Positions 13,820-48,845 of a stretch of 64,000 bases of DNA are shown here, one piece after another. The first letter of the stretch is position 1, and each line of letters opens with the position of its first letter. Position numbers and translations under genes: made by a program. Source of the stretch: an uncultured Bacteroidota bacterium (GTDB lineage Bacteria > Bacteroidota > Bacteroidia > Chitinophagales > Chitinophagaceae). The stretch covers positions 717,869 to 781,868 of the forward strand of contig CAVQDS010000002.1 of the NCBI GenBank assembly GCA_963711345.1, given 5' to 3'. The notes under the pieces were generated by a model that ran no database searches, had not been told where the DNA came from, and saw only the letters and a program-made list of their open reading frames with translations.

Positions 13820-14059
13820 CCTCTCCACGATAGATGCACGTTCCCTGCGAAGTACATTCAGTCTCACGGTAATTCATTTGCCTTTTGTTGCTTTTCTTCG
13901 CCTTTAGTAGCCTTTCTTTCGGTACTAATCTGTTACTAAATCCTGTTCTCGTAAAGTGCTTGATTTTGGTGGCCAGATTATAGGTCACAATGATACGGTA
14001 TGATACCTTATGATACGTAATGATACAGTATGATACCTTATGACACGGAATGATACAAT
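13802..14059 (+). repeat. Junction J0 (attL-like): core inside mnmE + type-1 arm + Box B + Box C + 7 decamers
   Basis: The core TTTTGTATCGGGAAGTAAC (13802-13820) contains the mnmE stop codon. It is followed by ctctccacgatagatgc..., Box B tactaatctgttactaaatcc (about 13923), Box C ggtggccagattataggtcac, and ATGATACNNT x7 (13990-14059). Confidence 0.85.
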
Positions 14060-14310
14060 ATAATAGTAGTTCGATGATGTGTTAATTCTTCGAAAATTAG
14101 GTATTGGAATAAAAGGATAAGCATTGAACGATGACATAATGAATGCTATTTTTGCATTAATGAAAATTGGCAACAGTCAACGATACAAAATTTTACCAAT
14201 GGTCTATGTAATTTTTAATTATGAATAATATATGGAAGATATTATAGATCAAATTTTGACCACCCGGTTTTACTGAAATTTCTTAACTTACTATTTAATA
14301 GCCATGTGTA

Positions 14311-15012
14311 ATGAATATCCCCGCCTTTTTTAAGTCTTTATTAATCTTGTTTGTGATTGCCTTCACCTGTATGAACGTCAGTGGGCAGACAAACAGTGAT
14401 TCATTAACCGTGAAAAATAAACTTGTTGCACTTCGAAATGATTTCGTTAGCAAAATTGAGGCCATGGGGTATCATCCACGGCTTAATTCACCTGAAATTA
14501 TAATGGATAACCCGCCTTCTTTTGGAAACTACAATGATTCGAGCAATACCATTCGTACCAGCAATTGGAACACATTATCTGCAGCAGACAAAGAACTGTT
14601 TAACAGAGCCGGCAAGAGATATGGATATTCCGGAGAAGATTATTTTGAGTCCAGTGCACATCGTTGGATTTTCATCCACGAACTCGGACATTGGTGGCGA
14701 GCCTGCCAGCAACAGGTGACTGATCCTTATTCGAGTGAAATGGCAGCTAATAGGATCGATATCGCTTATTGGCGGGAAACAGATACTGCGTACAGCAGTT
14801 TTTCCAGACGGCGACATGAAAATTATCTTAAGTTGATGCCTAATCCCGTTCCTGAAGGGCAGGATAAGCAAAAGTATCTAAATGACAATTATGGTAAGCT
14901 ACCAATACCCGTTTATATCTGGTATCAGGCTTCGATGATTGTTGATGGATATAACGAGACACCAATAGCCTCGTTCAAAGAAGCTATTAAACTTGCCGGT
15001 AACAAAAATTAG
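14311..15012 (+). CDS. Secreted protein with an HExxH motif (possible zinc-metallopeptidase-like), function unknown
   Basis: It has a signal peptide (LILFVIAFTCMNVSGQ) and an FIHELGHWW motif. I recognise no further family. Confidence 0.5.
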   Translation: MNIPAFFKSLLILFVIAFTCMNVSGQTNSDSLTVKNKLVALRNDFVSKIEAMGYHPRLNSPEIIMDNPPSFGNYNDSSNTIRTSNWNTLSAADKELFNRAGKRYGYSGEDYFESSAHRWIFIHELGHWWRACQQQVTDPYSSEMAANRIDIAYWRETDTAYSSFSRRRHENYLKLMPNPVPEGQDKQKYLNDNYGKLPIPVYIWYQASMIVDGYNETPIASFKEAIKLAGNKN

Positions 15013-15090
15013 CGGACGATGTTATTTATAGGTTTCCCACCTTCTGAAAAGGCCAATTCAAAACTTCATTTCTTGGGGGAGGCTCTATCT

Positions 15091-15321
15091 GCCTTTGGTT
15101 GCTTTTCTTCGCCTTTAGTCGCCATTCTTTCGCTCCTAATCTGTTACTAAATTCTGTTCTTGTGAATTGCCATGAAATGATGGCCAGATTATGGGCACTA
15201 ATGATACTGTATGATACGGTATGATACGGTATGATATCGTATGATACGGTGAAAATCCAGAGCTCCTAAGGGAAACCATGTATGAGAGCTGCCGGAATAT
15301 TACGCGTTGAGGAAACTTGAT
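15091..15321 (+). repeat. Junction J1: Box B + Box C + 5 decamers + 70-nt tail (no Box A or core)
   Basis: It reads ggttgcttttcttcgcctttagtcgcc..tcctaatctgttactaaattc..tggccagattatgggcac. The decamers are at 15201-15250. The tail at 15251-15321 is shared with J2 and J10. Confidence 0.8.
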
Positions 15322-15477
15322 TTATTTATTGTGGGTTTAAGTATATAATGGAAATAGATGAAGCATGAAATCTGAAGCAAATGAGAAATGGTCAGACTCA
15401 TTAACAATTCCTTTTAATAAATTTAACTATTTTTGAATGAGCATTTTATTCTGTCTCATCGCCCAAACCTTATCGGC

Positions 15478-15957
15478 ATGAAATCAGTAATTGTCAGTGC
15501 AATCTCCTGCGCTATCTTTCTCGCAGCTTGTAATAAGAACGGTACTACACTTACACCCGCACAAGCAATAGAAGGCAGTTACACCGCTTACAAACACCAC
15601 CGCTTTGACTCGGTAACCAGCTACCCGGTTAATGGCAGAACGATAACCATGCAAATTGATGCCATTGGCGAAGACTCCGTCAGGCTGCAAATCAGATCTG
15701 TACAAAATGGATTCTATTCTCCGGGGGACACGGTTATTGATCGTCACCTATTCGTTCAAAAGATGTTTACAGGATACCAGGTTTCGCTTGGCGACCCGGT
15801 TGATCCCGGCACTGCCGAAAATTCTATTAGGTTTGATGCTTCATTTGATCGCTACTTTGGCGTTTATCTATATAATGGTTACTATGGCTATTATGTATAT
15901 GTGCCGCCAGGATACAAACAGGGTGCCGTACAAACTCTTTTTAAAAAAATGCAATAA
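15478..15957 (+). CDS. Lipoprotein, unknown function
   Basis: The ATG at 15478 gives MKSVIVSAISCAIFLAACNK (lipobox LAAC). This is preferred over the upstream alternative start at 15433 in the ORF track. Confidence 0.5.
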   Translation: MKSVIVSAISCAIFLAACNKNGTTLTPAQAIEGSYTAYKHHRFDSVTSYPVNGRTITMQIDAIGEDSVRLQIRSVQNGFYSPGDTVIDRHLFVQKMFTGYQVSLGDPVDPGTAENSIRFDASFDRYFGVYLYNGYYGYYVYVPPGYKQGAVQTLFKKMQ

Positions 15958-16170
15958 GACCAAAGCCGTGAGTTCAGTCTCTCTTTTTCTTTGGTCGCCG
16001 TCCACGATCTGATTAATGTTTCCTTCGGGCTCATGGTGAACAGCTCCCGGGTTCCGGCATAGGCCCGGATTCGCTTCTCACGATGTTTTAGCCTGGGCAG
16101 GAATCCACCGGCAAAAACTAAAACCGGGTACCAGAGCACAACATAAATTCTGGTTTTGAGATTTGACTGT

Positions 16171-16320
16171 TTTTTGGTGGCCAGAATATGGGTCACAATA
16201 ATACGGTATGATACGGTATGATACGGTATGATATCGTATGATACGGTGGAATTCACATGCTCCTAAGGGTAAACATGTAGAAGATCTTGCGTATTGCAAG
16301 AGTTGATTAAACTCGATATA
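16171..16320 (+). repeat. Junction J2: Box C + 5 decamers + tail (no Box A, core or Box B)
   Basis: It reads tttttggtggccagaatatgggtcac. The decamers are at 16198-16247. The tail ggaattcacatgctcctaagggtaaacatg... is homologous to 15251-15321. Confidence 0.75.
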
Positions 16321-16381
16321 TTTAATATTGAAACCCGCACGTATTAACACAAACTCTTATTTCAAAACAAAGTTTCCACTT

Positions 16382-16840
16382 ATGTTTAAAGCGATTTATC
16401 TCTCACTCTACTTATTAATTACGATTATTTCTTCAAAAGGCCAAAGTATTGACAGCCTTAGATTGAATGATAGTGAAATACCCATTGGTTATGCGAAGAG
16501 TAATGAACTGCTTTGTAAAACGCCTCATGCTTTGTCAATATACCAACAGATGGACATGTTTGAATCATTTTTAGGTAAATTAGAACATAAAGATTTCCAA
16601 TCCTTTGAGAAAAAGGGAGATTCAGGCAGTATTTTATACTTTCAATTTCAGAAAGATTTTACAGGTCAAGGGTTTTTAGACGGCCTACTATGGGGATCGG
16701 ATGGTAAGCCAAGTAAATCAGAACCTGATGAGTACTTTGCTAAAGGGAACATACTTGTTGTCTGGAGTTTTAATTTAAAGAGCAACCTAAAATCCATTTC
16801 GAAAGAAAAGGTGGAAAGACTTTCAAATTCTATTAAGTAA
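16382..16840 (+). CDS. Hypothetical secreted protein
   Basis: The ATG at 16382 gives MFKAIYLSLYLLITIISSKGQ (signal peptide). I recognise no domain. Confidence 0.45.
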   Translation: MFKAIYLSLYLLITIISSKGQSIDSLRLNDSEIPIGYAKSNELLCKTPHALSIYQQMDMFESFLGKLEHKDFQSFEKKGDSGSILYFQFQKDFTGQGFLDGLLWGSDGKPSKSEPDEYFAKGNILVVWSFNLKSNLKSISKEKVERLSNSIK

Positions 16841-16848
16841 AGAAAAAT

Positions 16849-17187
16849 ATGGAAATTACTTTGAAAGATTATATAAGGAAAACCTTGGAAGAAATAAATG
16901 CAGGTCTGCCTGCGGGGTACGTCATTGAAGAAACCATCGATTTTGAAGTTTCAGTTAGTACAAGCCTCAATAAAAAGGGTGGAGTGGAGATAAAAGTGTT
17001 TACTGGTAACATTTCAAAAGAAGATCAATCTATCCAAACCGTGGCTTTTTCGGTTATCAATGAGGCAGATAAGAAAAAATCATTCGACCAATCGGCCAAA
17101 CACTTATTGAATTATATAGAAAAGGGGATAAAGCGTTTGTCGAAACTTTCAGAAAACCAAAAGCCATTCAAAAAACAAGGCGGTTAA
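16849..17187 (+). CDS. Hypothetical protein (112 aa)
   Basis: It is an ORF with an ATG start, tightly spaced after the previous gene. I recognise no domain. Confidence 0.4.
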   Translation: MEITLKDYIRKTLEEINAGLPAGYVIEETIDFEVSVSTSLNKKGGVEIKVFTGNISKEDQSIQTVAFSVINEADKKKSFDQSAKHLLNYIEKGIKRLSKLSENQKPFKKQGG

Positions 17188-17217
17188 CAGGAATCTAAGA
17201 TTTGAAGAAGGTACTTT

Positions 17218-17469
17218 ATGTTTAAGCGAGGCAACCCAATAGTATTTAAGAAAGGAAATGTTTCAGCACTTTTCGTTAGCACTCTTATGAGGATTAAAAA
17301 CGATATCGAAGGCGAGACCGAAGACTATATTCTTAATGTAAACGAATTGGAATATTCGGCGCATTTAGCAAATAAGTATAAATTTTTGGTACCCGAAATT
17401 CATTTTGACCAAGTTTATGCAGATAGTATGATGGGCCCTGTTTACAGGACAGATATTGTGTTAAACTAA
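17218..17469 (+). CDS. Hypothetical protein (83 aa), adjacent to an IS3 insertion
   Basis: It is a short ORF ending about 20 nt before the putative IS end. It may be a remnant of a longer gene. Confidence 0.3.
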   Translation: MFKRGNPIVFKKGNVSALFVSTLMRIKNDIEGETEDYILNVNELEYSAHLANKYKFLVPEIHFDQVYADSMMGPVYRTDIVLN

Positions 17470-17555
17470 GATAGAAAAGAACTTTGTTATTCGGTTAAAA
17501 GAAGTGGCGGCGGCTCCATTCAAAGAGCAAGGCGACACTTCTTTTAACTTCGGCA

Positions 17556-18374
17556 TCAGGCTACTTTTTTTTGCAGATAACATTCTGCAGGCGTTTTATA
17601 TTCGAGCGACTGGTGTGAGCGCTCGTGATTATAAAAAGAAAAATATTTCTGTAAGCCTTCATAAAGTAGAACGCCGTCCTGGGCCACATGCAGGTAAATG
17701 TGTTCATACTTCACCGATCTCCAGAGCCGCTCGATAAAAATATTGTCGATCGCCCTGCCTTTACCATCCATGCTGATCTGTATTTGTCTTCCCAACAGCA
17801 GGCCGGTAAAAACATCACTGGTAAATTGCGAGCCCTGATCGGTATTAAATATTTCCGGACATCCGTGCATTTCAAAAGCTTCTTCGACAACCCCGCCGCA
17901 CCATTCCGCTGTCATCGTATTACTCAGACCCCAGTTCACTACAAAGCGCGTATGCAAATCAATCACAGCGCATAGATACATAAACCCCCGGCGCATCGGA
18001 ACATACGTAATATCCATAGCCCAGACCTGGTTGGGTCTTTCTATCCGTAGACCTTTGAGCATATAGGGATAGAGCCTGTTTTGCTTATCGGGTTCACTGG
18101 TATTTTTATACCGGTACAACGTCTGCCATCCCATCACTTCCATCAGGCGTTTGGTCCGCTTGCGGTTAATTTTAAAATCCTGTTTCTTCAACCAGACCGT
18201 AAGCTTTCTGGATCCGTAAAACGGCGTTTTATAATACTGTTCATCCAGCAGACGCAGGATGGTCAGATTCTCTTCACTCTCCCTGCAGGGGGTGTAATAC
18301 AACCCGCTGCGATGAAGACCCAGTAGTCTGCATTGCCTTACAATACTCAAAGAACTATGTTTATGATCAATCAT
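17556..18374 (-). CDS. IS3-family transposase OrfB (DDE/rve integrase core)
   Basis: The sequence shows a typical rve domain (WAMDITYVP..FNTDQGSQFTS..YNHERSHQSL). Confidence 0.9.
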   Translation of the reverse strand: MIDHKHSSLSIVRQCRLLGLHRSGLYYTPCRESEENLTILRLLDEQYYKTPFYGSRKLTVWLKKQDFKINRKRTKRLMEVMGWQTLYRYKNTSEPDKQNRLYPYMLKGLRIERPNQVWAMDITYVPMRRGFMYLCAVIDLHTRFVVNWGLSNTMTAEWCGGVVEEAFEMHGCPEIFNTDQGSQFTSDVFTGLLLGRQIQISMDGKGRAIDNIFIERLWRSVKYEHIYLHVAQDGVLLYEGLQKYFSFYNHERSHQSLEYKTPAECYLQKKVA

Positions 18375-18400
18375 GGAACGATGTTCGCAAACCGGCTTTG

Positions 18401-18682
18401 CTATAAATTTTTTTTTAAAAAGTCGTTTTCCACTTTTAGTTGCCCGATCTGGGCATACAACTTCTCGGTTTGTTTTTCATGATCTGCAGCATCATCTGCT
18501 TTGTCTGCTCCAAATACCGAAGACATATTGGCTATCGCTTCCTTCTTCCAAATATTTATTTGATTGGGATGCAACTCATGCTTGCGGGCCAGCTCCTCAA
18601 TCGTGGAGCGTTCCCTTAATGCTTCCAGTACAACTTTCGCTTTGAATTCTGCGCTGAATTTACGCCTGGTTTTCTTTGCCAT
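18401..18682 (-). CDS. IS3-family transposase OrfA (HTH)
   Basis: MAKKTRRKFSAEFKAKVVLEAL.. is a typical IS3 OrfA. It ends in LKKNL at the A9 run, and the -1 frame continues into OrfB. Confidence 0.85.
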   Translation of the reverse strand: MAKKTRRKFSAEFKAKVVLEALRERSTIEELARKHELHPNQINIWKKEAIANMSSVFGADKADDAADHEKQTEKLYAQIGQLKVENDFLKKNL

Positions 18683-18697
18683 ATATGGTAATTTAAG

Positions 18698-19234
18698 ATG
18701 AAAAAATCATTCTTAAATACCTGTCCTATTTTTGGGGAACATCATAATAGCTATGAAGGAGAAATTCCCGCAGAATACTTTCCTGTAAGTTTTGATGTTC
18801 ATTCTGGGAAAAAATATAAAAGAGAAATTATCCAATATTGCATACCATGCGCTGGTGACGTAAGATTGCTCAACTATAGCCCTGCGTCGATGATAACATT
18901 GGGAGGAGGAGGAAACTTTGAAATAGATGGCAATACTTTAGTTACAGAAGTAATTAATTTCTATAATAATCCTGAAGAAATAAAGGGCAAATACGATAGC
19001 GAAGTTGGAGGAATCCACAGCAACTACTATACTTTAAAAAACGATATAGAAAATTTTAATTCTTCTCTAAACGATCAAATACTAGTTACGTTGCGACAAC
19101 GAAAGCAAAAAATACTTTCTAAAAATAATCTTCTTTCGCAATTGGGTGTTCCACTTAAAAAGAATGACGGTGTTGCTTCTACATTTGCTATTCCAAATCC
19201 CCAACACCGGGGGCTTTCCCTGAATATACCTTGA
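18698..19234 (+). CDS. Hypothetical protein; 5' end probably disrupted by the IS
   Basis: The first ~15 codons of the ORF overlap the putative IS terminus. The remainder has no recognised domain. It abuts the truncated rhs frame. Confidence 0.3.
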   Translation: MKKSFLNTCPIFGEHHNSYEGEIPAEYFPVSFDVHSGKKYKREIIQYCIPCAGDVRLLNYSPASMITLGGGGNFEIDGNTLVTEVINFYNNPEEIKGKYDSEVGGIHSNYYTLKNDIENFNSSLNDQILVTLRQRKQKILSKNNLLSQLGVPLKKNDGVASTFAIPNPQHRGLSLNIP

Positions 19235-22200
19235 CAAATAGTTTTCCATCCACTACAGCGGCTAATATTTTGACCAGTACATATTATGATGATTATAGCT
19301 GGGTTGCATCATCGGGGTCAACTATTGCTGCAACGTTCAACTCCAGTGGAAGCAGTAATTTCTTGGCAGCTTCATCTTCGTTTCCATATCCTCAGGCACT
19401 AACCCAGTCTCCCCAAACAAAAAGTTTAGTTACCGGAACTGTTGGGAAAGTATTGGGAATAACCACAACCCAATATTTATATACAGCCAGTTTTTTTGAT
19501 ACTAAGAGTCGTATAATACAGACACAAAGTATCAATCTTACAGGAGGATTGGATATTGCTACCAGGCAATTTGACTGGAATGGCAAAGCACTTAGGACAC
19601 TTTTGCAACACCAGAAAACCGGCACTTCGAACCCTCAGTCATATACTGTTCTTTCTATAATTAACTATGATGCCTGTGGAAGGTTGCAATCCATCACAAA
19701 AAATGTAAACAATGGGACGTTGCCGGCAGATCAGCAAATCATTGTTAACAATACATACGATGAGCTTGGCCGATTAAAGACCAAAGCCCTTGGCGCCCTT
19801 GATAACCTGACTTACGATTATAATATCCGCGGATGGCTTTTAGGTATAAACCGTGCTTATCTGGGAACTGTAACCAACCCGGCGAATATTGCTCCTTCAC
19901 CAAGCAATTATTTTGGATTTGAGCTGGCATATGATAAAACAACATCGCAAGCCGTTGATAATTCCTACGTTGCTGCCCAATACAGTGGAAATGTTGCCGG
20001 GACTGTCTGGAAAACGGTAGGTGATGGGATAGGTCGCAAATACGATTTTACTTACGATAACGTCAATCGTCTTACAACCGCTGTATATAAACAGGATAAT
20101 GGCGGCGGTAGTTTCGATGTAAGTGCCGGATTGGATTTTAGTGTCAGCAATTTAAATTACGATGTCGACGGGAACATACTTAGTATGAACGAATCTGGCT
20201 GGCAGATAGGAAAGGGCAGTTCAACGATTGATCAGCTTACCTATAATTACACTGCTAATACCAATAAACTGCAAAATGTAATCAACCCGAACAGCAATGC
20301 AACAACTACGTTAGGAGACTTCAGGTATTCAGCTGCGTATACAAGTGCCCTGGGAGGTCCTAAACCAGCAACTGCACTCGATTATACCTATGATGTGAAC
20401 GGGAATTTGATTACAGATAAGAATAAGGACATAACCGCCATCACTTACAACTTTTTTAATCTACCTCAGCAGATAACATTAGCAAAAGGAACTATCCAAT
20501 ATATTTATGATGCAACAGGCAATAAACTTCGTAAAATAGCTTATGAAACAAATGGTAATGTGACTTATTTAGGAACCAACTATCCGACAGCTATTACAAC
20601 AACCACAACTTATATTAACGGATTTGATTATAAGACTCTTTCTTATGGTAGCACGACCTTACCCGCGGCTGTGTTGGCACAACAGTTTACAGATAATCTG
20701 CAGTCCCTCGAACACGAAGAAGGTCGCGTACGTGCACTTTACACAAATGTTGCGTCCCCCAACACTATAAACGGATATGCATTTGACTATTTTGAAAAAG
20801 ATCATCTGGGTAACACCCGGGTGATTCTGACTGATGAAGCTGAACAGGATATTTATCCACCCACAACACTTGAGGGGAGTACGACCAATACAAGCACTGC
20901 AGTTGGATATGAGCAGAACTTTTATAGCATTAATGCTGCATATATTGTTCCGGCCACAACTGCCACAGGTATTCCCGCTTATACGAATAACAATAATAAT
21001 ATCGGTACGAATTTATATCCCTCCGGTAATAGTGGAAATACGAATGCCACGAGCAATAGCCAGAATCTGTATCGCATCAATGGGAACCTGAACAAATTAG
21101 GTCTTGGAATTACTCTGAAAGTGATGGCAGGAGACAAGCTGGATATTTATGGTAAGAGTTATTATTTTACAAACAATTCAAACGATAATACCAGCTATAA
21201 TCTGCCCATTCTTACACTTCTTTCCGGCTTTTTGGGAGCACCAAATGTCTCAGCATTAGAAACTTCTGCCCATGCGGGTGTAACTGCAACGCAATTAAGT
21301 GGTATTACAAGTCTCACAAACAATGTTTCATCTTATCTGTCCAATAGCGCAAATGGCAACACGAGAACGGCCACAACTTCCTCCAAGCCCAGAGCATATG
21401 TTAATTGGATATTTTTTGACAACCAGTTCAACTATGCAGGGGGAGGATTTTATCCTGTTGGAACAGCGGGAGTATTGCAGGACTATTTTAATGTGAGTTC
21501 TCTCCACAATATAATCGTTCCCAAAAGTGGTTATGTTTATGTATATTGTAGTAATGAGAGCCCGGTTGATGTGTTCTTTGATAATTTCCAGGTTATTCAA
21601 ACCAGGGGACCCTTAATCGAAGAAAATCATTATTATCCGTTTGGACTTTCCATTGCTGGAATCTCCGATAAAGCAGTCAAGACAAGCTATGCTGAAAATA
21701 AAAATAGATTTAGTGGAAAGGAATTACAGAATCAGGAGTTTAGTGATGGGTCAGGTTTAGAAGATTATGATTTTGGTGCGAGGATGTATGATCCACAGAT
21801 CGGGAGGTTTTTTACCATCGATAAATTTGCGGAGAAGTATTACGGATTGTCACCATATCAATACACTGCTAATAATCCTGTAAATAGTCTCGATGTTAAT
21901 GGAGATACTATTTGGATAACGATTGGCGGACAAAACTATTATTTTGGTAACACGGAAGAGGGTGGCTACGGTTTTTATGGAAGTGATGGAAAAAAATATA
22001 ATGGAGATGACAAATTTGCAAATGCGGTTTCAGCGGCGTTGACCGGTTTTGCTAATTCAAAAGACAACGAAGTAAAAGACAGACTGAATGCCGAAATGTC
22101 AAGTAAATTTATAATAAAAATTGAAGCTGGACAAAATCAGGTTGAGAAAGTTATGTTAGATGATGGTTCGTACCAAAGTGTAAATGACCCGAATTTTGAT

Positions 22201-22581: not shown

Positions 22582-22594
22582 TCGGGATATAATC

Positions 22595-23149: not shown

Positions 23150-23364
23150 AGAAGTAAGATCCTAAAAACTGAAAATACTTAAGTGAAAAGATTTAAAGAA
23201 AAACGGGCTTTTTACTAGTGTGGGTTTATGGAATTGAATAAAATGGAATACGTCATTTTATCGTCTGTCTGTGACATGGAAGGTTTTCTATAGGCAATAA
23301 TCAATAAAGATCTTGAATCTTCATTTTTTCAAAATAATCGGTTCAATTGTCGCAAAATTCCGGT

Positions 23365-23537
23365 AACTAATCCGTCACTAAATCCCCGCAAACCCACTGG
23401 AATCGCGGCACAGTACTTTTTGTATCGGGAAGTAACCTTTTCAAGATAGATGCGCGTTCCCTGCAGAGTACTTTCATTCTCACGGTATTTGATTTGCCTT
23501 TATCTGCTTTTCTTGGCTACTAATCTGTTACTAAATA
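23365..23537 (+). repeat. Junction J3: Box A + exact core + type-1 arm + Box B (truncated, no Box C or decamers)
   Basis: It reads aactaatccgtcactaaatccccgcaaacccactggaatcgcggcacagtac, then the core at 23418-23436, then cttttcaagatagatgcgcgttccctgcagagtac..., then ctactaatctgttactaaata. Confidence 0.85.
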
Positions 23538-24902: not shown

Positions 24903-24904
24903 TC

Positions 24905-29344: not shown

Positions 29345-29363
29345 AAAAACGACCTAAATCTCC

Positions 29364-29613
29364 ATTACCAAACCGACACCAATTCCCCGCAAACCCACTG
29401 GAATCGCGGGACAGTACTTTTTGTATTGGGAAGTAACTATAGGATGACGGGTGACGGTTGGCCGTTGCCGGATGATTCATTCTCTCAAGACTTTCTTTTT
29501 TCTCTAGTAGCATTTTTGAAGTTTATTCTGCCTTCGGCAGGACTCCTAATCTGTTAACTAATCTTGTTCTTCTGATTTTCTGTTATTAGATGGCCAAATC
29601 ATAGGTCACAATG
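29364..29613 (+). repeat. Junction J4: Box A + core (1 mismatch) + type-2 arm + Box B + Box C, no decamers
   Basis: It reads ...aattccccgcaaacccactggaatcgcgggacagtac, then core ttttgtattgggaagtaac (29419-29437), GACGG/TTGCCGG-type short repeats, hairpin ctgccttcggcag (29528-29540), tcctaatctgttaacta, and gatggccaaatcataggtcac. Confidence 0.8.
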
Positions 29614-29811
29614 CCTGTCCCGCTTCTGCGGGGATACTTGGAAATTCCGAACTGACAGACCACTACATTCCGGATGAAAATGACCACTAAAAAAGTTGAT
29701 ATCCAATTATATCGATGATCAATTTAAAACGGAATAGATTGATCCGTGTCTTCGAAATTTCCACAGCACAAATTGTATGGAATCCAAATTTAGTTAAGTT
29801 AGCTTTATACC

Positions 29812-33326: not shown

Positions 33327-33616
33327 CCTAATCTGTCGCAAAATCTCCGCAAACCCACTGGAATCGGCCTACAGTACTTTTTGTATCGGGAAGTGACCTC
33401 TCCACATTAGATGCGCATTCCCTGCGGAGTACTTTCATTCTCGCCGTAATTCATTTGCTTTTAGTTGCTTTTCTTCGCCTTTAGTAGCCTTTTATCCGCT
33501 ACGAATCTGTTACTAAATCCTGGATTTTGGATTTACTCATTTTGAATGGCCAAATTATGGGCACTAATGATACGGTATGATACCTAATGATAGTGTATGA
33601 TGCGGAATGATACGAA
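33327..33616 (+). repeat. Junction J5: Box A + core + type-1 arm + Box B + Box C + 5 decamers
   Basis: It reads cctaatctgtcgcaaaatctccgcaaacccactggaatcggcctacagtac, then core 33379-33397 (aagtGac), then ctctccacattagatgcgcattccctgcggagtac.., tacgaatctgttactaaatcc, and the decamers at 33567-33616. Confidence 0.85.
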
Positions 33617-35177: not shown

Positions 35178-36421
35178 GTGAAAAGTAAAATCCTTAAAAT
35201 CATAATGGTATGCTGTGCATTTTTACTATGTAATACTTTACATGCACAGATCGCATTCGACAATTACGCCTTAACAGGCCTTACCATAATTGATGCGAAT
35301 CATCGAACACCGCTGTCAAATCAAACTGTACTGATTACGAAAAATGTCATAAGTAATATATTTGGAAATGGAAACCAACCCATCCCTGATTCTTTCAATA
35401 TTATTCGCATGGAGGGGAAATATCTATTGCCCGGTTTGATAGATGCACATGTGCACATGGCTACGGACCCATCGTTTGCAGATAACCGGGTACATACTTT
35501 AGATGTTTTGCGGCGAATGTTGTTTAGTGGAATTACCTCAGTAAGAGATATGGCCGGTGATGCACGAACACTGGCAAGCTTATCCCGGGACGCTTTAAAT
35601 GATGATATCATCTCGCCCGATATATATTATTCCGCATTAATGGCGGGACCGGTTTTCTTTAATGATCCCAGGGCAGAGTCGGCAGCAAGGGGTGGTGTCG
35701 CAGGAAAAATGCCCTATCGGCAGAAGCAAAAGGAAGCGGCGCAACTGGTATTAAATTATTCGCCAATTTGTCTGCGCAGCTAGTTGCTAAAATCATTGAC
35801 GAAGCAAATAAGCAAGGCATGATTGTTTGGGGACATGCATGGCTTCAGAATGCAAAACCCTCCGACCTGGTAAAAGCGGGTGTAAATCCCATTTCGCATT
35901 CAGCTTTACTCATTCACGATAAAATTGATACAATTCCTTTACTGTGGAAAAATCAACGGCATGATGATAAATTCTGGAAAAGTTCTATACCCGACTTTTC
36001 AACGTTATTTCAATTAATGAAGGCACACAATACAATACTTGATGCGACTATGATCACATATAAACATTGGGGAGAGCAGGATACATCCATGCGGTACGAT
36101 TATGAAATCACAAAACGCATAACCACTCAGGCCTACAAAGCAGGCGTGATGATAGATGCAGGCACTGATGATGACCAGGGAGCATTTGTACAAAAAGAAA
36201 TGGAAGTACTGGTAAATGATGCCGGCCTCAGTAATTTCGATGCTCTGGTAGCCGCCACATTAAATGGCGCCTATGCATTACATATAAATAATACTCGTGG
36301 AACAATTGCAGTAGGCAAAATTGCAAATCTCGTTGTGCTTAATAAAAACCCCTCACAAAAAATAGAAAATATCGAATCAGTTTTTCTTGTAATAAAAAAT
36401 GGGATAATCTTTAAAAAATGA
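35178..36421 (+). pseudogene. Amidohydrolase-family metallohydrolase, one apparent frameshift at an A5 run
   Basis: ORFs 35178-35783 (signal peptide, GLIDAHVHM) and 35768-36421 (..GTDD.., C-terminal GKIANLVVL) are two halves of one gene. The second frame reads ..AEAKGSGATGIKLFANLSAQL, and the switch is near ggaaaaatg (35705-35709). Confidence 0.75.
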
Positions 36422-37946: not shown

Positions 37947-38002
37947 AATGTCGCCTTTGTACTATTTCTGCCTTAAATATCCAAATAGCTTTATGATCAA
38001 AA

Positions 38003-39628: not shown

Positions 39629-39646
39629 TTTAATACTTAAACCCCG

Positions 39647-39926
39647 GTTACTAAATCGTTACCAATTCCCCGCAAACCCGTTGTAATCGGGGCACAGTAA
39701 TTTTTGTATCGGGAAGTGATGATTGGTTAGCGGTTGGCGGTTGGCGGTGGCTGGATTTAATCAAACTATTTTTATTTTCTTCAGTAGCCTTTTGAAGTTT
39801 ATCCCGCTGAAGGCGGGATTCCTAATCTGTTACTAAATCCGGTTCTTGCGATTTACGTTATTTTGGTGGCCAGATTATAGGTCACAATGATACGGTATGA
39901 TACCTGATGATACCGTATGATACGGT
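39647..39926 (+). repeat. Junction J7: Box A + core + type-2 arm + Box B + Box C + 4 decamers
   Basis: It reads ccggttactaaatcgttaccaattccccgcaaacccgttgtaatcggggcacagtaa, then core 39702-39719, TTGGCGG heptamers (39725-39750), hairpin atcccgctgaaggcgggat (39801-39819), tcctaatctgttactaaatcc, and the decamers at 39887-39926. Confidence 0.85.
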
Positions 39927-40117
39927 ATTTACAAATATATGAGTGAAGAAGGAATTTGTACCTGCAGTGGTTACACAGGCGCCAAGGTTTCCTCTTCAAA
40001 GTACCCTGGCTGTATTGTATTCGCGAATTGAAACACTGCATCTGAAGCATTCACAAGGTCAAAGTCTAACAGTGTTTTAAATAGCGTCTGGTGATACGTT
40101 ACATTTTGAGCTTCCAA

Positions 40118-40411: not shown

Positions 40412-40853
40412 ATGATTATTTCCTGGAATATCTTGGAGGGCTATTTTATTTTTATAAGCATCTTCTGAATGAATGTTTGCATTTCGGCAGTACAGCCAGC
40501 AATTGAAAACTCGACAAAATCATTGAAGCAGGTGACTTATCAAAGTAACAATTGATTAATCTGCATTATTTTTTAACGCCATGATGCATTAATGAGTTCA
40601 CAATATGGTTTTGTATAATCTTTTGAAGTAAGAATGTCTTTTTCTCCCTGTATGAGATAGACTGGTATCTTAAAATTCAATGCCGGTCGCGAAAATATTG
40701 CTGGCCAAACAGCAGAATCAGCAAACATACAACCAGCGTGCGTCTATTAATGTCGTTTGGCGTTAAAAAATGCAGTTGGTATCTAAAAGAATGATTTTTA
40801 TCGAATTATTATAATGACGTTCATATATTCTTTAAAAAAAGTAACTTCCATAT

Positions 40854-41930: not shown

Positions 41931-41969
41931 AATTTACCAGAAATTATATCCGGTAATAAATCAGATTAA

Positions 41970-42707: not shown

Positions 42708-42718
42708 TAATTAATTAT

Positions 42719-43219
42719 TTATGGCGTTGTGGTGAAGATCAAAATATACGCACTTAATTTAGCTGTATCCAATCCGGCTACAATGACTGTTTGAACGGAA
42801 GGATAGCCTGGATCATTATGATCGTAAGGAATATCAGTGATTAAAGTATCTGGCGTAATCCTTATAATTTTAGATGTACCGGGAGAGAGTGAGTCGTTTT
42901 CTATAGTTTCCAAAGTCGAATCGGGTAATATTTTCCAGGTTCCTGCACTAAACTCATTGTTAGGGGAAGAATATACAGTCCATGTGTTACCTGCAAATAC
43001 CCAATATTCACTATCTATATTATCAGTAAGAGCTTGATTACCTCCTTTTACAAAAATCGTGTCGATGCTTCCGTTATAGTTTGCCAACTCCTCCTTCAGA
43101 TACCATGTGTTTTGAATACAAGCCTAAGGATTAGTGCAGGTTGGTGGTGGTGGTGTTGATGTTGAAGATGAATTCTTTGAGCAACCAAGGGAATAGATGC
43201 ATGTAATGATTATTGTGCC
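42719..43219 (-). pseudogene. Lipocalin-like lipoprotein remnant (no start codon, in-frame TAG)
   Basis: The minus-strand frame reads GTIIITCIYSLGCSKNSSSTSTPPPPTCTNP-TAG-ACIQNTWYLKEELANYNGS.... The TAG is at 43124-43126. No ATG lies upstream of the lipobox. Confidence 0.45.
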
Positions 43220-43718
43220 TTAGCCACTATTGTTCCGGAAAGCTTCACTATTGGTTGATCATTTTCCATAAGTGAAATATTAGCGAAGGATGCTGTTAAA
43301 GTGTTTCCCGAAACACTTATGTTTACTGTATCGTCTGTTGCGCCTGTAGAATAGAAATAACTGCCGCCAGGTCTTTGTGCATTACCATGTACAGTTGTTA
43401 CAACTATGCTTACATCTGTACTGCTTAGAGGTGTTAATCCATCTGCTATTATTACTGCATATGTTCCCTTGCAGGATGCGTATTGGCAAAGAAAAGATCG
43501 ATTTGATCAACTTCACCCGAATCAAGTGATCCCACATCTCCTTTACCTGGATAACATGTCCCCGCATCTCCGGTAGAAGAATAGGAGGAATCTCCTGTAT
43601 AGGAAATGCCTTTTAAAGTCCATGTGGTTGCGGGCGGTTTAGTAGAATCTGCATTGCTTTTCTTACAACTATAAAATGCAGGCTAAATGAAAAGTGCTAA
43701 TCCCAGCAATCCTTTCAT
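43210..43718 (-). pseudogene. Lipoprotein gene remnant (in-frame TAG plus one frameshift)
   Basis: The minus strand reads MKGLLGLALFI-TAG-PAFYSCKKSNADSTKPP...FFANTHPA. There is a frame switch near 43465, then KGTYAVIIADGLTPLSS...KLSGTIVAKAQ-stop (43210-43212). The TAG is at 43683-43685. Confidence 0.45.
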
Positions 43719-43917
43719 GATTGTTTGTTCAGTTGATAAACTGATTGTTTTGATATTTCGAGAAATAAATTCTTGTTTTGGCAAAGCTTTTAAGAAGGTT
43801 CATATGATCTCCATAAAAAAGGCCTGGAAAGGCCTCTCTTATTGCCATACTCAAACTCTTCGCCGATAAATAAAAATTGGGCACAGATGATTTAAAAATC
43901 GCGGTAACCTCACCGCT

Positions 43918-45051
43918 TTATTTTTTAATAAAATAATGTTGTTTCGCACAGGTCACATCAAATTGCCAGATTTCTCCCTGTCCCGGAACGCCGTTATAGC
44001 CCCAAATTGAAACGTATAATTTATTATCCGGACCGAATGTCATCGCTGTCGGAAAATTGAGTCCTGAAGCTATAGTTAACTTTTCTCCGGATGGATCGAT
44101 TCTTATAATATCACCTGTTCCGGCGATAGGGAAAGGATTATTGGTTGTGTTTTCAAGTACATACATTCCCCCCACTTCATCAAATAGTATTCCCAATACA
44201 GCAGTAAAGCCAGTTGCTATCACACTGATTTGGCCACCAGGAGTAATTTTAAATATAGAAGATAGATCGCTGAGTGGATATGTACCGAGGTTACTTACAT
44301 AGAAATTACCATCATGAAATATCTGACAGGTCGGAACTATATGCCCCTGAGTTGCAGAAATATCAATTACACGGCTGATATTTCCCTGTGGTGTTATCCT
44401 GTCCAACTCTCCATGATTGGGTTCTATCACAAATAAGTCCCCATTTTCTGCACTCATACTATAGGGTGTTCCATCCGGTTCAAAATCCGGGGGGTTTTCA
44501 TGTGCCGTCGGGTTATTCATATAGAATTCACTCAGGTTGGCAATCAACTCCCAGGATCTGTCCTGCTTTACTTTAAAAACTCCATTTGGTATTCCTGTTA
44601 CCCCATGAGAACAACCCGCACCAGAAAGCAATCCATACAGGGTATTGCCAATAAATCCAACGTCTCCGACTCCCTGAGTGTCAGATCCTGTAGCCGCCGA
44701 TGTTTGACTGGAAGGCAGATTATTTACAAATATTTTACGAACACCGTCCTGACCTATTCTAGAAATGCAGGATCCGGTCTGACTGCCTAAATAAGGTCCA
44801 ACAGGTGGAATGACCTGCGTGCAAGTTGTCATATTTGATCCGCCGATGCCCGCTTCTGCAACATATAGGTATCCATCCGGACCAAATTTCAATCCTCTCG
44901 GACTATTGAAACCCGAAGAGAATCTGGATGCGTTAATAACAAGATTATCCGGACTGCAATTGCACAATTCAGGACCATTTTTTTTGCAGGAAGAGAATAG
45001 TCCAAAAATGATAATAGCTGATGCGAAACGTAAGTAGTTTTTTCTTTTCAT
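43918..45051 (-). CDS. ScyD/ScyE-like beta-propeller lipoprotein
   Basis: It has a lipoprotein signal (IFGLFSSCKK). The motifs SPRGLKFGPDGYLYVAEAG and ..NFPTAMTFGPDNKLYVS resemble the ScyD/ScyE (NHL-like) family. Confidence 0.6.
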   Translation of the reverse strand: MKRKNYLRFASAIIIFGLFSSCKKNGPELCNCSPDNLVINASRFSSGFNSPRGLKFGPDGYLYVAEAGIGGSNMTTCTQVIPPVGPYLGSQTGSCISRIGQDGVRKIFVNNLPSSQTSAATGSDTQGVGDVGFIGNTLYGLLSGAGCSHGVTGIPNGVFKVKQDRSWELIANLSEFYMNNPTAHENPPDFEPDGTPYSMSAENGDLFVIEPNHGELDRITPQGNISRVIDISATQGHIVPTCQIFHDGNFYVSNLGTYPLSDLSSIFKITPGGQISVIATGFTAVLGILFDEVGGMYVLENTTNNPFPIAGTGDIIRIDPSGEKLTIASGLNFPTAMTFGPDNKLYVSIWGYNGVPGQGEIWQFDVTCAKQHYFIKK

Positions 45052-45189
45052 AAAACTGGTTAATAAGGTGATGAAAAAAAGCTATTTAAAAAACATTTGT
45101 CTTGCGGTGGAATTTTAGACATAGAAAAGGTTATTGCAGTAATCTACCTTCATCTTGTTGCTTGATCAAAAAATATCTACGAGCGACTA

Positions 45190-45263
45190 TTTTAGCCAAC
45201 CAACGACATCGGCTGACAGCGGTATGATACCTGATGATACCTAATGATGCGTTATGATACAGT
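45190..45263 (+). repeat. Junction remnant J8: degenerate Box C + 4 decamers
   Basis: It reads tattttagccaaccaacgacatcggctgacagcgg followed by atgatacctg atgataccta atgatgcgtt atgatacagt (45224-45263). Confidence 0.6.
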
Positions 45264-45479
45264 CGATTTGGGGTTGTAAGCTTCCCCAGGACGAATTGAG
45301 TCTTTGTTAAACGGCAATCAAACGAAACCTTGGCCATTTGAACTGCAAGAGTAGGTTCATGAAAAATCTTAAATAGATTTGATTATCGGGAATGTTGGAT
45401 ATTCGAGCATTAAGAAAAGAAAAACCTGATACGATACGGCGCTTAATTTGACATTTTCATTACACCAAAATATATCTTC

Positions 45480-47246
45480 ATGTGGAATCGTAAATGGACG
45501 TTATTCTTTCTCATTTTGGCTTTCAGCCAATTTGGCTCAAAGGCGCAACAAATTTATTTAGTTGACGGAAATATTGTCAATGTGAAAGATGGGAAAGTGT
45601 ATAAAAATATGACCATTGTCATTGAAGATTCTGTTATCAGGAAAATTGAGAAAAGCAATCCTAAACTAAAGATACCAGCAACAGCAACTGTGATCAATCT
45701 GAATGGAAAATACATTATGCCTGGTATGATTGATGCTCATATCCACTTTTATCAATCCGGTGGTTTATATACCAGACCAGACCACATAAATGTTCCCAAC
45801 ATATATAGCTATGTAAAAGACCAGCAATGGATTTCGGACAACAGGGAGGATTTAATGCGCCGTTATCTTGCTTGTGGCATCACTACTGTCATGGATATGG
45901 GCGGTCCAATGAGCAATTTTGAGGTTAGAAAATATTGTAACCAATCACCTGTGTCGCCAAACGCCCTGGTGACAGGTCCCTTAATTTCTACTTACGCCGC
46001 ACCAAATTTTGATAAAAATGACCCCCCTATTATTAAAGTCAATAATGAGGAAGAGGCTATTGCGGCGGTTCGCAGGCAGATGCCATTTCATCCTGATTAT
46101 ATTAAAATATGGTTCATCGTTTCTGCTAATCTGCCTGCAGAAAAATCGCTTCCCATCATCCGCGCTATTATAGAGGAAAGTCACAAAAATAATTTGAAAG
46201 TGCTGGTTCACGCGACTCAGTTGCATACGGCAAGACTTTCTGTAGAAGCCGGGTGTGATATTTTGGTGCATACCGTATCGGATAGTCTTGTCGATCTGTC
46301 TTTTATACAATTATTGAAGGCTAAAAATACTACGTTGATCACGACACTTAATGTTCGTTTAATGAATGGTGAAGTAAATACGCAGCGAATGTATTTTACC
46401 TCTCATGATTTACGACGGGCCAATCCTTTTATGCTTGGTACTCTGTTTGATCTGCAACATATTTCGGCGAAAGAAGTGGGTTTTGATTACATGGATTTGC
46501 GTAGTAAAAGACAAGTTCCTTCTAAACAAGACAGTAATATGCTTGTCAATTGTAAATTACTCTATGATGCGGGAATTAATATTGTTGCCGGTACCGATGC
46601 AGGCAACCTGGGTGATGAGCATGCCGCCTCTTATCTGGATGAATTAATAGCCATGAAAAAAGCTGGATTAAGCAATGCACAGGTGCTTAAAGCGGCTACC
46701 ATTAATGCCGCCAAAGGATTCGGTATTGAAAACAGGCTGGGTAGTATTGAAAAAGATATGCTTGCAGATTTACTCATACTTAACAATAATCCATTTGAAA
46801 ATCTTCAAAATCTGGATACCATATATTTAATGGTTCACCGTGGAATGTTGATTAATACGGATACCTTAATAAAGCAGACTCCTGCGAGTATTGTGCAACA
46901 ACAGTTCAACGCCTATAATGCCCATGATTTCGATGAATTTTTCAACCTGTATAGCGACAGTGTTGTTATATCAAACGGCGACACGGTAATCGTTAGGGGA
47001 AAGCAGCAGATGCGAAAATTGTATCAAAGCCTTTTTACAACCGAAACTTTTTTACATAGCCAGCTGCTGAATCGAATGACCTTTGGGAATACTGTAACGG
47101 ATCTTGAAAGTACTGAGGCCATTTCGGGTACACTCCTTAAACATCATATATCCAAAGGGCTTGCCATTTACCGGGTTAATAATAATAAAATTGATAAAGT
47201 AACTTTGATTCGAATCGAGCGAATTGATTTCCCAACAAATAAATAA
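45480..47246 (+). CDS. Amidohydrolase-family protein with a C-terminal NTF2/SnoaL-like extension
   Basis: It has a signal peptide, GMIDAHIHF, ..VAGTDAGN.. and GSIEKDMLADLLIL. The last ~120 aa (QQQFNAYNAHDFDEFFNLYSD..) look NTF2-like. Confidence 0.8.
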   Translation: MWNRKWTLFFLILAFSQFGSKAQQIYLVDGNIVNVKDGKVYKNMTIVIEDSVIRKIEKSNPKLKIPATATVINLNGKYIMPGMIDAHIHFYQSGGLYTRPDHINVPNIYSYVKDQQWISDNREDLMRRYLACGITTVMDMGGPMSNFEVRKYCNQSPVSPNALVTGPLISTYAAPNFDKNDPPIIKVNNEEEAIAAVRRQMPFHPDYIKIWFIVSANLPAEKSLPIIRAIIEESHKNNLKVLVHATQLHTARLSVEAGCDILVHTVSDSLVDLSFIQLLKAKNTTLITTLNVRLMNGEVNTQRMYFTSHDLRRANPFMLGTLFDLQHISAKEVGFDYMDLRSKRQVPSKQDSNMLVNCKLLYDAGINIVAGTDAGNLGDEHAASYLDELIAMKKAGLSNAQVLKAATINAAKGFGIENRLGSIEKDMLADLLILNNNPFENLQNLDTIYLMVHRGMLINTDTLIKQTPASIVQQQFNAYNAHDFDEFFNLYSDSVVISNGDTVIVRGKQQMRKLYQSLFTTETFLHSQLLNRMTFGNTVTDLESTEAISGTLLKHHISKGLAIYRVNNNKIDKVTLIRIERIDFPTNK

Positions 47247-47319
47247 GTTTATATGTTATAAAATCCATTTTTAAACTTATAAGAGTCTCGCACCAATAAG
47301 TAAGGACCTAAATTTCATT

Positions 47320-47545
47320 TACCAATCCGTCACCAATTCCCAGCAAACCCACTGGAATCGGCCTACAGTACTTTTTGTATCGGGAAGTGCTCAAAATGAT
47401 TATTTGCGCAATGAATTGAACATCAACGAGGGAGAAAACAGGCGAAATCACTGAAAGCCGGTAAGCTCACCGGAGGTTCTTGGATAAAACTTCACAATTT
47501 CCAGATTGCGCTCAATCAACTATCAAAAACCGTCCTGTTTATGAT
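47320..47545 (+). repeat. Junction J9: Box A + core + type-3 arm
   Basis: It reads ttaccaatccgtcaccaattcccagcaaacccactggaatcggcctacagtac, then core 47373-47389, then the arm with caggcgaaatcactgaaagccggtaagctcaccggaggttcttggataaaacttca. The palindrome is at 47458-47473. Confidence 0.8.
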
Positions 47546-47599
47546 GTGCAGGCGCATAGTTGATATCGGTAGAAGTCGCCCGTTCTCACTCAATCATAA

Positions 47600-48235
47600 C
47601 TATTTGAGCTCGTAGCTTTCCAAATACCAATCCAGGTTATGCCTGGTGTATAATGTATATTCGCCCCCGGTATTAAGGTATTTTTTTACAAACCCAACAT
47701 GATCTTTAAACCACTGGTCAATGGTAAACATCCCATCGGGAGGACCTGTAAATCCGTAAATCCTCCAAGCCCCTGAAAAGTCATTGTTGCCGAAAGTTAT
47801 ATCACCAGGACCGGTGACAATCACAGACTCCGGAAATGGTGTAATTGTTGGCAAATATTGCCAAGATGAACCTGATGTAAAGGGAAAAATATATTGACCA
47901 ATCAGGAAAGTGTTAATATCAAAAAACTTTATGGTATCTCCGGATTGATATACAAAGTTACTATCGACATGGTCCGGAAAGTTGAGTTGCAAGATGGTCG
48001 CGGTTATTCCATTGGGCCATTTTACAGTGTCAACGATAAGGACATCCACATTATATTGTGTGGAACCACTAACCAGATTTCCCTGAATGGTCGTGTCTTT
48101 CACTATGTAATGCCAAGTGTCGCCGATTGTATTGGGAAATTGCTCCTGGGCGTTCGTATTTCCGTTATTGCTTTTTTTGCACCCGGTGGCCAGCAATATA
48201 AGTAGAGCTCCGATACCTAAAATTTCCTTTTTCAA
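47600..48235 (-). CDS. Lipoprotein, unknown function
   Basis: MKKEILGIGALLILLATGCKK contains a lipobox. I recognise no domain. Confidence 0.5.
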   Translation of the reverse strand: MKKEILGIGALLILLATGCKKSNNGNTNAQEQFPNTIGDTWHYIVKDTTIQGNLVSGSTQYNVDVLIVDTVKWPNGITATILQLNFPDHVDSNFVYQSGDTIKFFDINTFLIGQYIFPFTSGSSWQYLPTITPFPESVIVTGPGDITFGNNDFSGAWRIYGFTGPPDGMFTIDQWFKDHVGFVKKYLNTGGEYTLYTRHNLDWYLESYELK

Positions 48236-48484
48236 CGTAAAGCTTTATTTTATTACCGGACATGCGGTCGAAATTGCAGCATTAAAGTTAGAAGTTTAAA
48301 AATTAATGACCGCGAAAAAAGGCTGCCCGTTAATCTGGCAAGATAATTCCCCTGCTATATATTTAGTTATATTCTTTAAAATCGGCTCTTTTGCGTTGAA
48401 AATAATATAGCATCAGACGGACATTATGAACCTAAAGAAGTTATTAAACATCATTACTTGTAGTTATTTCGATAATTGATTGGT

Positions 48485-48845
48485 TACGAATCCGTCACCA
48501 ATTCCCCGCAAACCCACTAAAATCGCGGGACAATACTTTTGTATCGGGAAGTAACCAAGCCACGATGAATGCGCGTTTCCCACGATTGACGCATGTCCTA
48601 TTTGAATTCCTTTTGCTTTTTGTTGCCTTTCTTCGCCTTTAGTAGCCTTTTATTCGCACCTAATCTGTTACCAAATCAAGATTCTTCCAAGGGTTTTATT
48701 TAGTGGCCAGATTATGGGACACAATAAAACTGTATGTTACCCAATGTTACGGTATGATACCGTATGATACTGTTAAAATCCAGGGCTTCTAAAGGAAACC
48801 ATGTATGAGAACTGCAGGAATATTACGTGTTGAGGAAACTTGATA
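48485..48845 (+). repeat. Junction J10: Box A + exact core + type-1 arm + Box B + Box C + 4-5 decamers + tail
   Basis: It reads tacgaatccgtcaccaattccccgcaaacccactaaaatcgcgggacaatac, then core 48537-48555, acctaatctgttaccaaatca, tagtggccagattatgggacac, the decamers at 48734-48773, and the tail at 48774-48845, which is homologous to 15251-15321. Confidence 0.85.

Follow-up and report, generated by a model that had tools for sequence, protein, structure and literature searches.

What are the short, helically phased repeats behind mnmE for? Downstream of this tRNA modification GTPase gene, a 64,000-nucleotide stretch of an uncultured Chitinophagaceae bacterium (contig CAVQDS010000002.1, positions 717,869 to 781,868; hereafter the window) carries seven head-to-tail arrays of a decamer of the form ATGATACnnn. 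The arrays are very probably the protein-binding part of one attachment (att) arm in a family of integrative elements that target the end of mnmE. With appreciably less confidence, we infer that they are read by a small excisionase-like protein with a Zn-ribbon and an HTH_17 domain, which would bind the array and act in excision. The original prediction had listed iterons, parC-type centromeres and the arm-site or architectural arrays of recombination complexes as possible readings. Only the last is supported, because the arrays keep a fixed distance from the attachment core and occupy a single att arm, and because related elements encode an arm-binding integrase together with an excisionase-family protein. 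The iteron and centromere readings are not.

The decamer array and its attachment site

All seven arrays lie on the + strand and comprise 4–7 units each with a unit-to-unit spacing of exactly 10 bp, as had been predicted for the same coordinates. The two-unit pattern ATGATACNNTATGATAC, searched with at most one mismatch, matches 21 times in the window, always on the + strand, against 0.01 matches expected from dinucleotide shuffles. Tandem Repeats Finder reports period-10 arrays at all seven coordinates, and a chain search gives identical spacing. Of the 29 ATGATAC words on the + strand of the window, 25 fall within the arrays' 340 bp, against a background of 0.083 per kb per strand across the genome. 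The locus is exclusive, with no further decamer array in the whole 4.72-Mb assembly (2 contigs).

The arrays form the end of a longer module. A full junction consists of Box A (the right arm), the core, a type-1 or type-2 spacer, four GCYTTTnnnn units, the box CTAATCTGTTACTAAATCC, Box C, and the decamers. Eight core copies are present in the window, all on the same strand, and copies with 0–1 mismatch are confined to the mnmE locus bar one 1-mismatch match elsewhere on contig C2. A core-like match on contig C1 lies inside a coding region and was attributed to chance. In a whole-assembly search Box A and Box C are also nearly restricted to the mnmE locus. The GCYTTT repeats form a first phased array, the start of which precedes the first decamer by exactly 110 bp in three of its four copies. 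ATGATAC occurs in one arm only, 3' of the core, and is missing from the right arms, which carry a box related to CTAATCTGTTACTAAATCC, yAATCCGTCACyAAwTCC, within Box A. Boxes resembling CTAATCyGTyACTAAATCC are common to both arms and are better candidates for integrase arm sites.

Each array had been expected to stand directly after Box C. This is the case for six of the seven, with 11 nt separating Box C from the first recognisable unit at 48734, and fails for the array at 45224, which has no Box C. As expected, J3, J4 and the type-3 junctions have no arrays. A genome-wide count, which had been proposed as a check, finds the link with Box C and the junctions to hold across the genome and across genera. 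Arrays that lack this link and drift in spacing are therefore not what is seen.

The array at 45224 is preceded by the 3' end of a remnant gene (45051-45263 region). In two other genomes, at L015 (16100-16210) and L152 (5060-5180), the matching array begins right where the intact gene ends (...TITQPINF*). The core and Box C are missing from the 45224 array and from both counterparts, and arrays of this type represent either a fused junction or a second context. Two further modules were seen next to the arrays. The Box D module, GAAAATCCAGRGCTCCTAAGGGAAACCATGTATGAGAGCTG..., begins right after the last decamer at 15251-15321, 16248-16318 and 48774-48844, as well as at 12 junctions in other genomes with differing cargo genes downstream. 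It could be an arm extension or a 5' leader. At J4 a GC-rich hairpin, GCCTGTCCCGCTTCTGCGGGGATAC, follows Box C (29610-29640) and no decamers come after it; in other genomes (L018, L056 and L088) the same hairpin insertion, ~30 nt long, lies between Box C and an intact decamer array.

Unit statistics were drawn from 69 distinct core- or Box C-linked arrays of this genus and other Chitinophagaceae, with 3–8 units each and 311 units in total. The heptamer is kept across these units, partly through ascertainment since units were picked at ≤1 mismatch. Almost no preference is seen at positions 8 and 9 (0.19 and 0.16 bits), and at position 10 T (60%) and A (32%) predominate, giving W. It is the direct repeat of W-ATGATAC that is conserved. 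As the spacer is free and only this direct repeat is conserved, the 9-bp interrupted palindrome GTAT-G-ATAC (GTATGATAC) originally proposed for the most regular copies is incidental. The arrays begin ~180–220 bp from the core, with modes at ~188, 198, 208 and 218 bp.

This arrangement is conserved between genera of one family. With a strict three-unit pattern, arrays were found in 18 of 37 genomes of the same genus and in none of 24 representatives of other families of the order. When one genome per GTDB species was searched, many Chitinophagaceae proved to have the pattern beside a core-like end of mnmE, among them Niastella, Longitalea, Chitinophaga, Sediminibacterium, and metagenome-assembled genomes labelled Ferruginibacter and Puia. 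The modules of these relatives keep their order and orientation. Matches to the ATGATAC pattern in other phyla and in IMG/VR are unrelated, being perfect microsatellites with identical spacers. In G027, which belongs to the same genus, the site is empty and unrelated DNA without arms begins directly after the mnmE stop, hence the arms are element-borne.

Autonomous relatives and the candidate reader of the array

A complete genome of the window's genus, G081, carries a 22-kb element at mnmE with arms identical to those of the window. Its 5' part consists of the core, a type-1 arm, four GCYTTT units, Box C, five ATGATAC units and four cargo genes. These are followed by a gene with a Zn-ribbon and an HTH_17 domain, a 150-aa open reading frame (ORF), and the integrase gene. 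The element ends with PRiA4_ORF3, a primase-like BT4734_N/DUF3987 protein, DndB, an Eco57I-type restriction-modification system, Box A, the core, and the left arm of the next cassette. Because the G081 element has the same arms, the cassettes of the window share both of theirs with an autonomous element. The HTH_17 gene product scores 39.9 bits against the TIGR01764 'excisionase family' model, the cut-off of which is 28.8.

In Longitalea luteola and Niastella yeongjuensis, mnmE is followed by the core, an ATGATAC array and then recombination genes within 2.5 kb. The Xis-like protein of these species has 123–143 aa, with a CxxC...CxxC N-terminus and an HTH_17 domain. The 380-aa integrase (L125, L071), to which that of G081 is ~61% identical, contains the Pfam domains Arm-DNA-bind_5, Phage_int_SAM_5, and Phage_integrase, an architecture we take to be the CTnDOT/NBU type of Bacteroidota. 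The Longitalea locus, which reaches further, also encodes a second HTH_17 protein and a primase-like DUF3987 protein. Of 201 genomes sampled from the family, 31 (in 30 genera) encode a homologue of the integrase (44–63% identity), and in 17 of the 20 loci fetched (~20 genera) this gene lies directly downstream of mnmE. Within the window's genus the cognate integrase is found in only 4 of 61 genomes.

Two earlier candidates were discarded. A Xer-dependent system, an idea that arose from the lack of a recombinase near the arrays, was dropped once cognate integrases had been found behind mnmE. An integrase abutting a junction in G028 (L003) was rejected as the cognate enzyme, as its 59–81% homologues are not at mnmE. 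The closest relative of the L003 enzyme in the window's genome (52% identity, 405 aa) lies at C1:806207-808268, immediately downstream of an apparent tmRNA gene. The L003 integrase was set aside as a passenger or a neighbouring element, and its C1 relative belongs to a separate integrative element with a different target.

The usual order in autonomous elements is the core, a first repeat set (e.g. TTGTTGCC), a second repeat set, the xis-like ATG, and int. First repeat sets such as TTGTTGCC and TTGTACCT, found beside the integrase gene in other genera, are the counterparts of the GCYTTT units. The second set ends 0–30 nt before the xis-like ATG in most autonomous elements. In the 70 nt upstream of this ATG the autocorrelation maximum falls at period 10 in 12 of the 14 elements scored first, with values of 0.45–0.62 vs. 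~0.25 at other periods, and the same peak appears in five of six further elements. The units upstream of the xis-like ATG are clade-specific: ATGATAC, TAGTTAC, ATGATGG, GCTACA, GCACCA, GATACA, GGCAC, GACACTTAA, TGCAACA, and AAACGCT (G065). In the clade with ATGATAC units (G081, Longitalea, Niastella), 1–3 kb separate the xis-like gene from the array. There the array stays ~190 bp from the core despite the cargo placed before xis, and is therefore tied to att function and not only to xis transcription.

The G065 array (L212; G065:C36, 330-400) comes from the same genus as the window. Its 10-bp phased AAACGCTnnn units follow a Box C-like site at the position of the decamers and lie directly upstream of the genome's own Zn-ribbon/HTH_17 gene, a second specificity class in one genus.

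The class of the motif appears to covary with the helix-turn-helix (HTH) domain of the Xis-like protein. Across 16 elements, compared as 120 non-independent pairs, the Xis HTH domain is 66% identical between elements with the same motif and 42% between those with different motifs. The corresponding values are 66% and 51% for the integrase N-domain, and 66% and 54% for the rest of the integrase. The clearest pair is L177 (ATGATAC) and L180 (TAGTTAC), whose integrase N-domains are 60% identical while their Xis HTH domains share 35%. Recognition-helix classes match the motif classes, with ..TxRRW accompanying ATGATAC, ASRWTIYRL accompanying GCTACA, ASRWTIQRM accompanying GCACCA in three independent elements, and CSxRTAY accompanying GACACTTAA in three elements. 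Motif class thus appears to track the Xis HTH domain better than the arm-binding domain of the integrase, which is suggestive only.

Together these data are consistent with the following scheme. The decamers would constitute a head-to-tail array in the mnmE-proximal (attL-side) arm of tyrosine-integrase elements that insert into the last 18–19 bp of mnmE in Chitinophagaceae. Their likely reader is the element's small recombination directionality factor (RDF), built from an N-terminal Zn-ribbon and a C-terminal HTH_17 winged helix. A monomer of this factor may occupy each helical turn, and the bound protein may bend or wrap the arm and assist the integrase in assembling the excisive complex. 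Autoregulation of xis-int by the same factor is also probable where these genes adjoin the array.

Such binding has parallels in other systems. Head-to-tail oligomerisation on DNA is reported for HTH_17 proteins, among them RDFs such as RdfS and Pukovnik Xis as well as the regulator BldC, and bound BldC molecules are spaced one DNA turn apart (PMC11963761). Judged by analogy, such filament-forming proteins and the excisionase-binding direct repeats of att arms appear to be the closest mechanistic systems. Repeats of the latter kind include X1-X1.5-X2 for lambda Xis, X1-X4 for the L5 and Pukovnik Xis, the pSAM2 Xis repeats, and the Cox boxes of P2. As in Xis and Cox arrays, the tandem direct repeats described here are about one helical turn apart and lie in one att arm, and the adjacent gene in related elements encodes a small winged-helix protein of the excisionase family (TIGR01764/HTH_17). 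Unlike known RDFs, the Xis-like protein has an additional N-terminal CxxC...CxxC Zn-ribbon, and the heptamer is sharply defined whereas RdfS has no consensus. The arrays also differ from known RDF arrays in having up to eight units, in persisting within integrase-less cassettes, and in that binding is predicted.

Several observations weigh against the Xis-like protein as reader. The excess in the Xis HTH domain is no more than suggestive because all proteins of an element co-diverge and the sample is small and non-independent. L189 and L192 lack both the xis-like gene and the second array while keeping the first repeat set and the integrase, a joint loss that speaks for the Xis-like protein but could also be a single deletion of adjacent DNA. 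The ATGATAC clade lacks the physical link between xis and array seen in other clades, its xis gene being kilobases away. The cognate integrase was detected in 4 of 61 genomes of the genus and arrays in at least 18 of 37, so most arrays are kept in the absence of their presumed reader, and a host factor is conceivable. A single-sequence AlphaFold2 prediction for the Xis-like protein was of unusable quality (pLDDT 58). The protein's best sequence match in the PDB is marginal (6AMA, 'putative DNA-binding protein', E = 0.6); we take this entry to be a BldC-DNA complex.

Other readings of the array

Of the alternatives, the one that fares best holds that the integrase, through its N-terminal arm-binding domain, uses the decamers as arm-type sites in the manner of lambda P'1-P'3 or the sites of IntDOT and NBU1, and that they do not serve an excisionase-like protein. 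The cognate integrases do carry Arm-DNA-bind_5, the array does occupy an att arm and keep a fixed distance from the core, and lambda P'1-3 are themselves adjacent arm sites ~10 bp apart. The persistence of arrays in the ATGATAC clade, where xis is far away, also fits this reading. However, arm sites would be expected to share a consensus in both arms, and here ATGATAC is restricted to the left arm while it is CTAATCyGTyACTAAATCC that recurs in both. The motif follows the integrase N-domain less closely than the Xis HTH domain, as L177 and L180 illustrate with differing motifs at 60% N-domain identity. Elements without xis retain the first repeats beside int and have no second array, and runs of up to eight contiguous units would be unusual for integrase arm sites. 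Integrase arm sites are thus considered unlikely, if still worth entertaining, and binding by the Xis-like RDF is preferred.

A purely transcriptional role, in which the array is an operator or promoter, ancestrally of xis-int and in the cassettes of cargo, with no part in recombination, is improbable. It draws on the closeness of the array to the xis-like ATG in most autonomous elements, and on the + strand placement of the first sizeable ORF after every window array but the one at 39887, which is followed first by a 97-aa ORF on the minus strand. Yet it is the distance to the core that is conserved, whereas the distance to the next gene in the window ranges from 81 to 928 bp, and in the ATGATAC clade, with xis 1–3 kb off, the array has remained in the att arm. 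The cassette at 54.7 kb provides a further case. Its orthologue in G025 (L147, G025:C6) has Box A, the core, a type-2 arm, Box C, and three decamers, of which a 39-bp deletion in the window took the three decamers and the rest of Box C. Despite this loss, the 5' region downstream of the junction and the cargo gene, which encodes an fn3 protein, are still 86% identical to the orthologue. Nor does this genome encode a regulator that would bind the array.

That the arrays serve replication or partition of the excised circle, as iterons or a centromere-like site, is very improbable. The primase-like BT4734_N/DUF3987 protein of autonomous relatives and the A+T-rich DNA after array 1 could be taken in its favour, but the units are 10 bp and not the usual 17–22 bp, protein scans found no rep or par gene next to any window array, and the position of the array follows the core and not the distant primase gene, which lies several kb away beyond the integrase. 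Least probable of all is a functionless microsatellite arising from replication slippage, as the variation in unit number (3–8) between junctions is outweighed by neighbouring spacers that differ while the heptamer is conserved across genera, by the exclusive locus, single orientation, and fixed core distance, and by true microsatellites with ATGATAC elsewhere having identical spacers.

The cassette stack behind mnmE

The junctions of the window form a stack of ~9–11 in 45 kb, enclosing very small units of 1–6 kb (Table 1). The cargo between them is varied and includes a Rhs toxin fragment, a SprB-type adhesin, NAGLU, an S9 peptidase, amidohydrolases, AraC, LytTR and MarR regulators, and two IS3 elements. 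SprB- and CHU_C-type proteins of type IX secretion are encoded in the window, in keeping with a member of the Bacteroidota. Among the scanned cassette ORFs none matched an integrase or excisionase family, IS3 transposases apart, and an Rfam gathering scan and a tRNA scan of the window gave no matches.

Table 1. Coordinates of mnmE, the decamer arrays and the att-site modules in the window
Feature	Position	Strand	Remarks
mnmE (tRNA modification GTPase)	12458..13819	+	Pfam MnmE_helical, TrmE_N, MMR_HSR1
Core TTTTGTATCGGGAAGTAAC, the genuine mnmE end	13802..13820	+	19 bp; last 18-19 bp of the gene are the attachment core
Further core copies	start 23418, 29419, 33379, 39702, 47373, 48537, 52849	+	seven, all downstream
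First phased array, left arm (5' part of 'Box B')	13880..13919	+	GCYTTTnnnn x4, 10-bp period
GCYTTTnnnn x4, other copies	15091-15130, 33457-33496, 48615-48654	+	
CTAATCTGTTACTAAATCC box	13925..13943	+	also in left arms at ~15136, 23520, 33502, 39822, 48660
Box C GGTGGCCAGATTATAGGTCAC, imperfect palindrome	13968..13988	+	
Box C, other copies	~15179-15200, 16176-16196, 33545-33566, 39865-39885, 48702-48722	+	
Box C copy without decamers	29589-29609	+	J4
Box A, right-arm module directly 5' of core	23362..23417	+	also at 29363, 33323, 39646, 47317, 48482, 50808
Decamer array 1	13990..14059	+	7 units (6 exact), mnmE-proximal junction (attL)
Decamer array 2	15201..15250	+	5 units, then conserved Box D module
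Decamer array 3	16198..16247	+	5 units, then diverged Box D copy
Decamer array 4	33567..33616	+	5 units; full junction (Box A, core, type-1 arm, Box C)
Decamer array 5	39887..39926	+	4 exact units; full junction, type-2 arm
Decamer array 6	45224..45263	+	4 units; orphan without core, Box B or Box C
Decamer array 7	48734..48773	+	4 units (2 exact); full junction, then Box D
Decayed junction	54703..54802	+	type-2 arm and half of Box C; Box A and core gone

The proteins that would act on these sites are missing from the genome. It encodes five tyrosine recombinases, all far from the locus, and no serine recombinase. No PF00589 or PF00239 recombinase lies within ~90 kb of any array (scope: this genome, with 12 relatives for tyrosine and nine for serine recombinases). 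By tblastn the G081 Xis-like protein has no match in the genome, and the G081 integrase finds only 25–34% matches to unrelated recombinases. Since neither a cognate integrase nor a cognate excisionase is encoded, the arrays of the window are orphaned. The window would thus represent a tandem accretion of ~9–11 small cassettes that have kept their arms while integrase and excisionase are gone. Its arrays may be usable only with the proteins of a helper element acting in trans, and some appear to be decaying already. Logan contigs from four soil metagenomes were inspected over 12.5-32.4 kb, with a depth too low and repeats too ambiguous for calls on excision or copy number.

Other features of the window are noted for completeness. 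The amidohydrolase gene at 35178-36421 is split into two overlapping ORFs of 201 and 217 aa, which points to a frameshift or a sequencing error, and nuoN at 6345-7650 is apparently split likewise into two overlapping ORFs. Tandem repeats with a period of 7–8 nt (CGATCCA, AGTGTGAG, TAAAGCC, and others) occupy the spacers between housekeeping genes (nuo, exbBD, tonB) at 1034-1103, 2202-2336, 2674-2870, 10107-10160 and 12373-12443, and are unrelated to the junction system.

The searched literature yielded no account of elements that target mnmE in Bacteroidota. In Gammaproteobacteria, SGI1 and MGIVchHai6 share the same target, the last 18 bp of trmE (= mnmE), and likewise use a tyrosine integrase and Xis. 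The SGI1 repeat TTCTGTATTGGGAAGTAA (PMC11237444, PMC4958241) resembles the core TTTTGTATCGGGAAGTAA of the elements described here. The two groups differ in phylum and in integrase domain architecture, which is Arm-DNA-bind_5/SAM_5 in the present elements. The integrase of the latter is only 23–33% identical to the other tyrosine recombinases of the window's genome.

The stack can also be compared with cis-mobilisable elements (CIMEs) and their tandem accretion. In the ICESt1/ICESt3 family of Streptococcus thermophilus, such units have lost their integration genes, kept attL and attR, and are stacked at one target beside autonomous relatives (PMC5704250). The units behind mnmE similarly lack integration genes, retain their att arms, and are stacked at one gene. 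They share a core, contain neither int nor xis, and have a related autonomous element with the same arms in G081. Unlike CIMEs, the stack is unusually long, its units are very small, and it recurs in many species of one genus. Chromosomal integrons and clusters of attC sites lacking integrases (CALINs) bear a further likeness, with small, mostly promoter-proximal cassettes in the same orientation, conserved recombination modules, and often no integrase nearby. The system behind mnmE differs from integrons in having no IntI and no folded palindromes of the attC type. At its junctions lie attP-like duplex sites that have arms and a 19-bp core derived from a housekeeping gene.

A tentative extension of these comparisons, to which we give well under even chances, is that the mnmE locus is an integron-like gene-capture platform run by helpers and satellites, in which decamer-armed cassettes are mobilised in trans and the heptamer classes form incompatible groups. 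If so, a rare autonomous element would use its Zn-ribbon/HTH_17 excisionase and its integrase to excise, shuffle, and spread integrase-less cassettes by means of the array as a handle. The heptamer classes (ATGATAC, AAACGCT, GCTACA, and others) would then define incompatible mobilisation groups. We know of no IncC-type helper for these elements.

Read in this way, a conspicuous repeat finds its place in the recombination machinery of mnmE-targeting islands, a family that is widespread in soil Chitinophagaceae and shares its 18-bp target with SGI1 of another phylum. The sharply defined, clade-specific heptamers, each beside a matching small DNA-binding protein, provide a natural series on how excisionase filaments read DNA. 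The cultured strains Niastella yeongjuensis DSM 17621 and Longitalea luteola SYSU D00799 carry autonomous elements, and with this system it could be asked whether cassettes that lack an integrase are mobilisable in trans.

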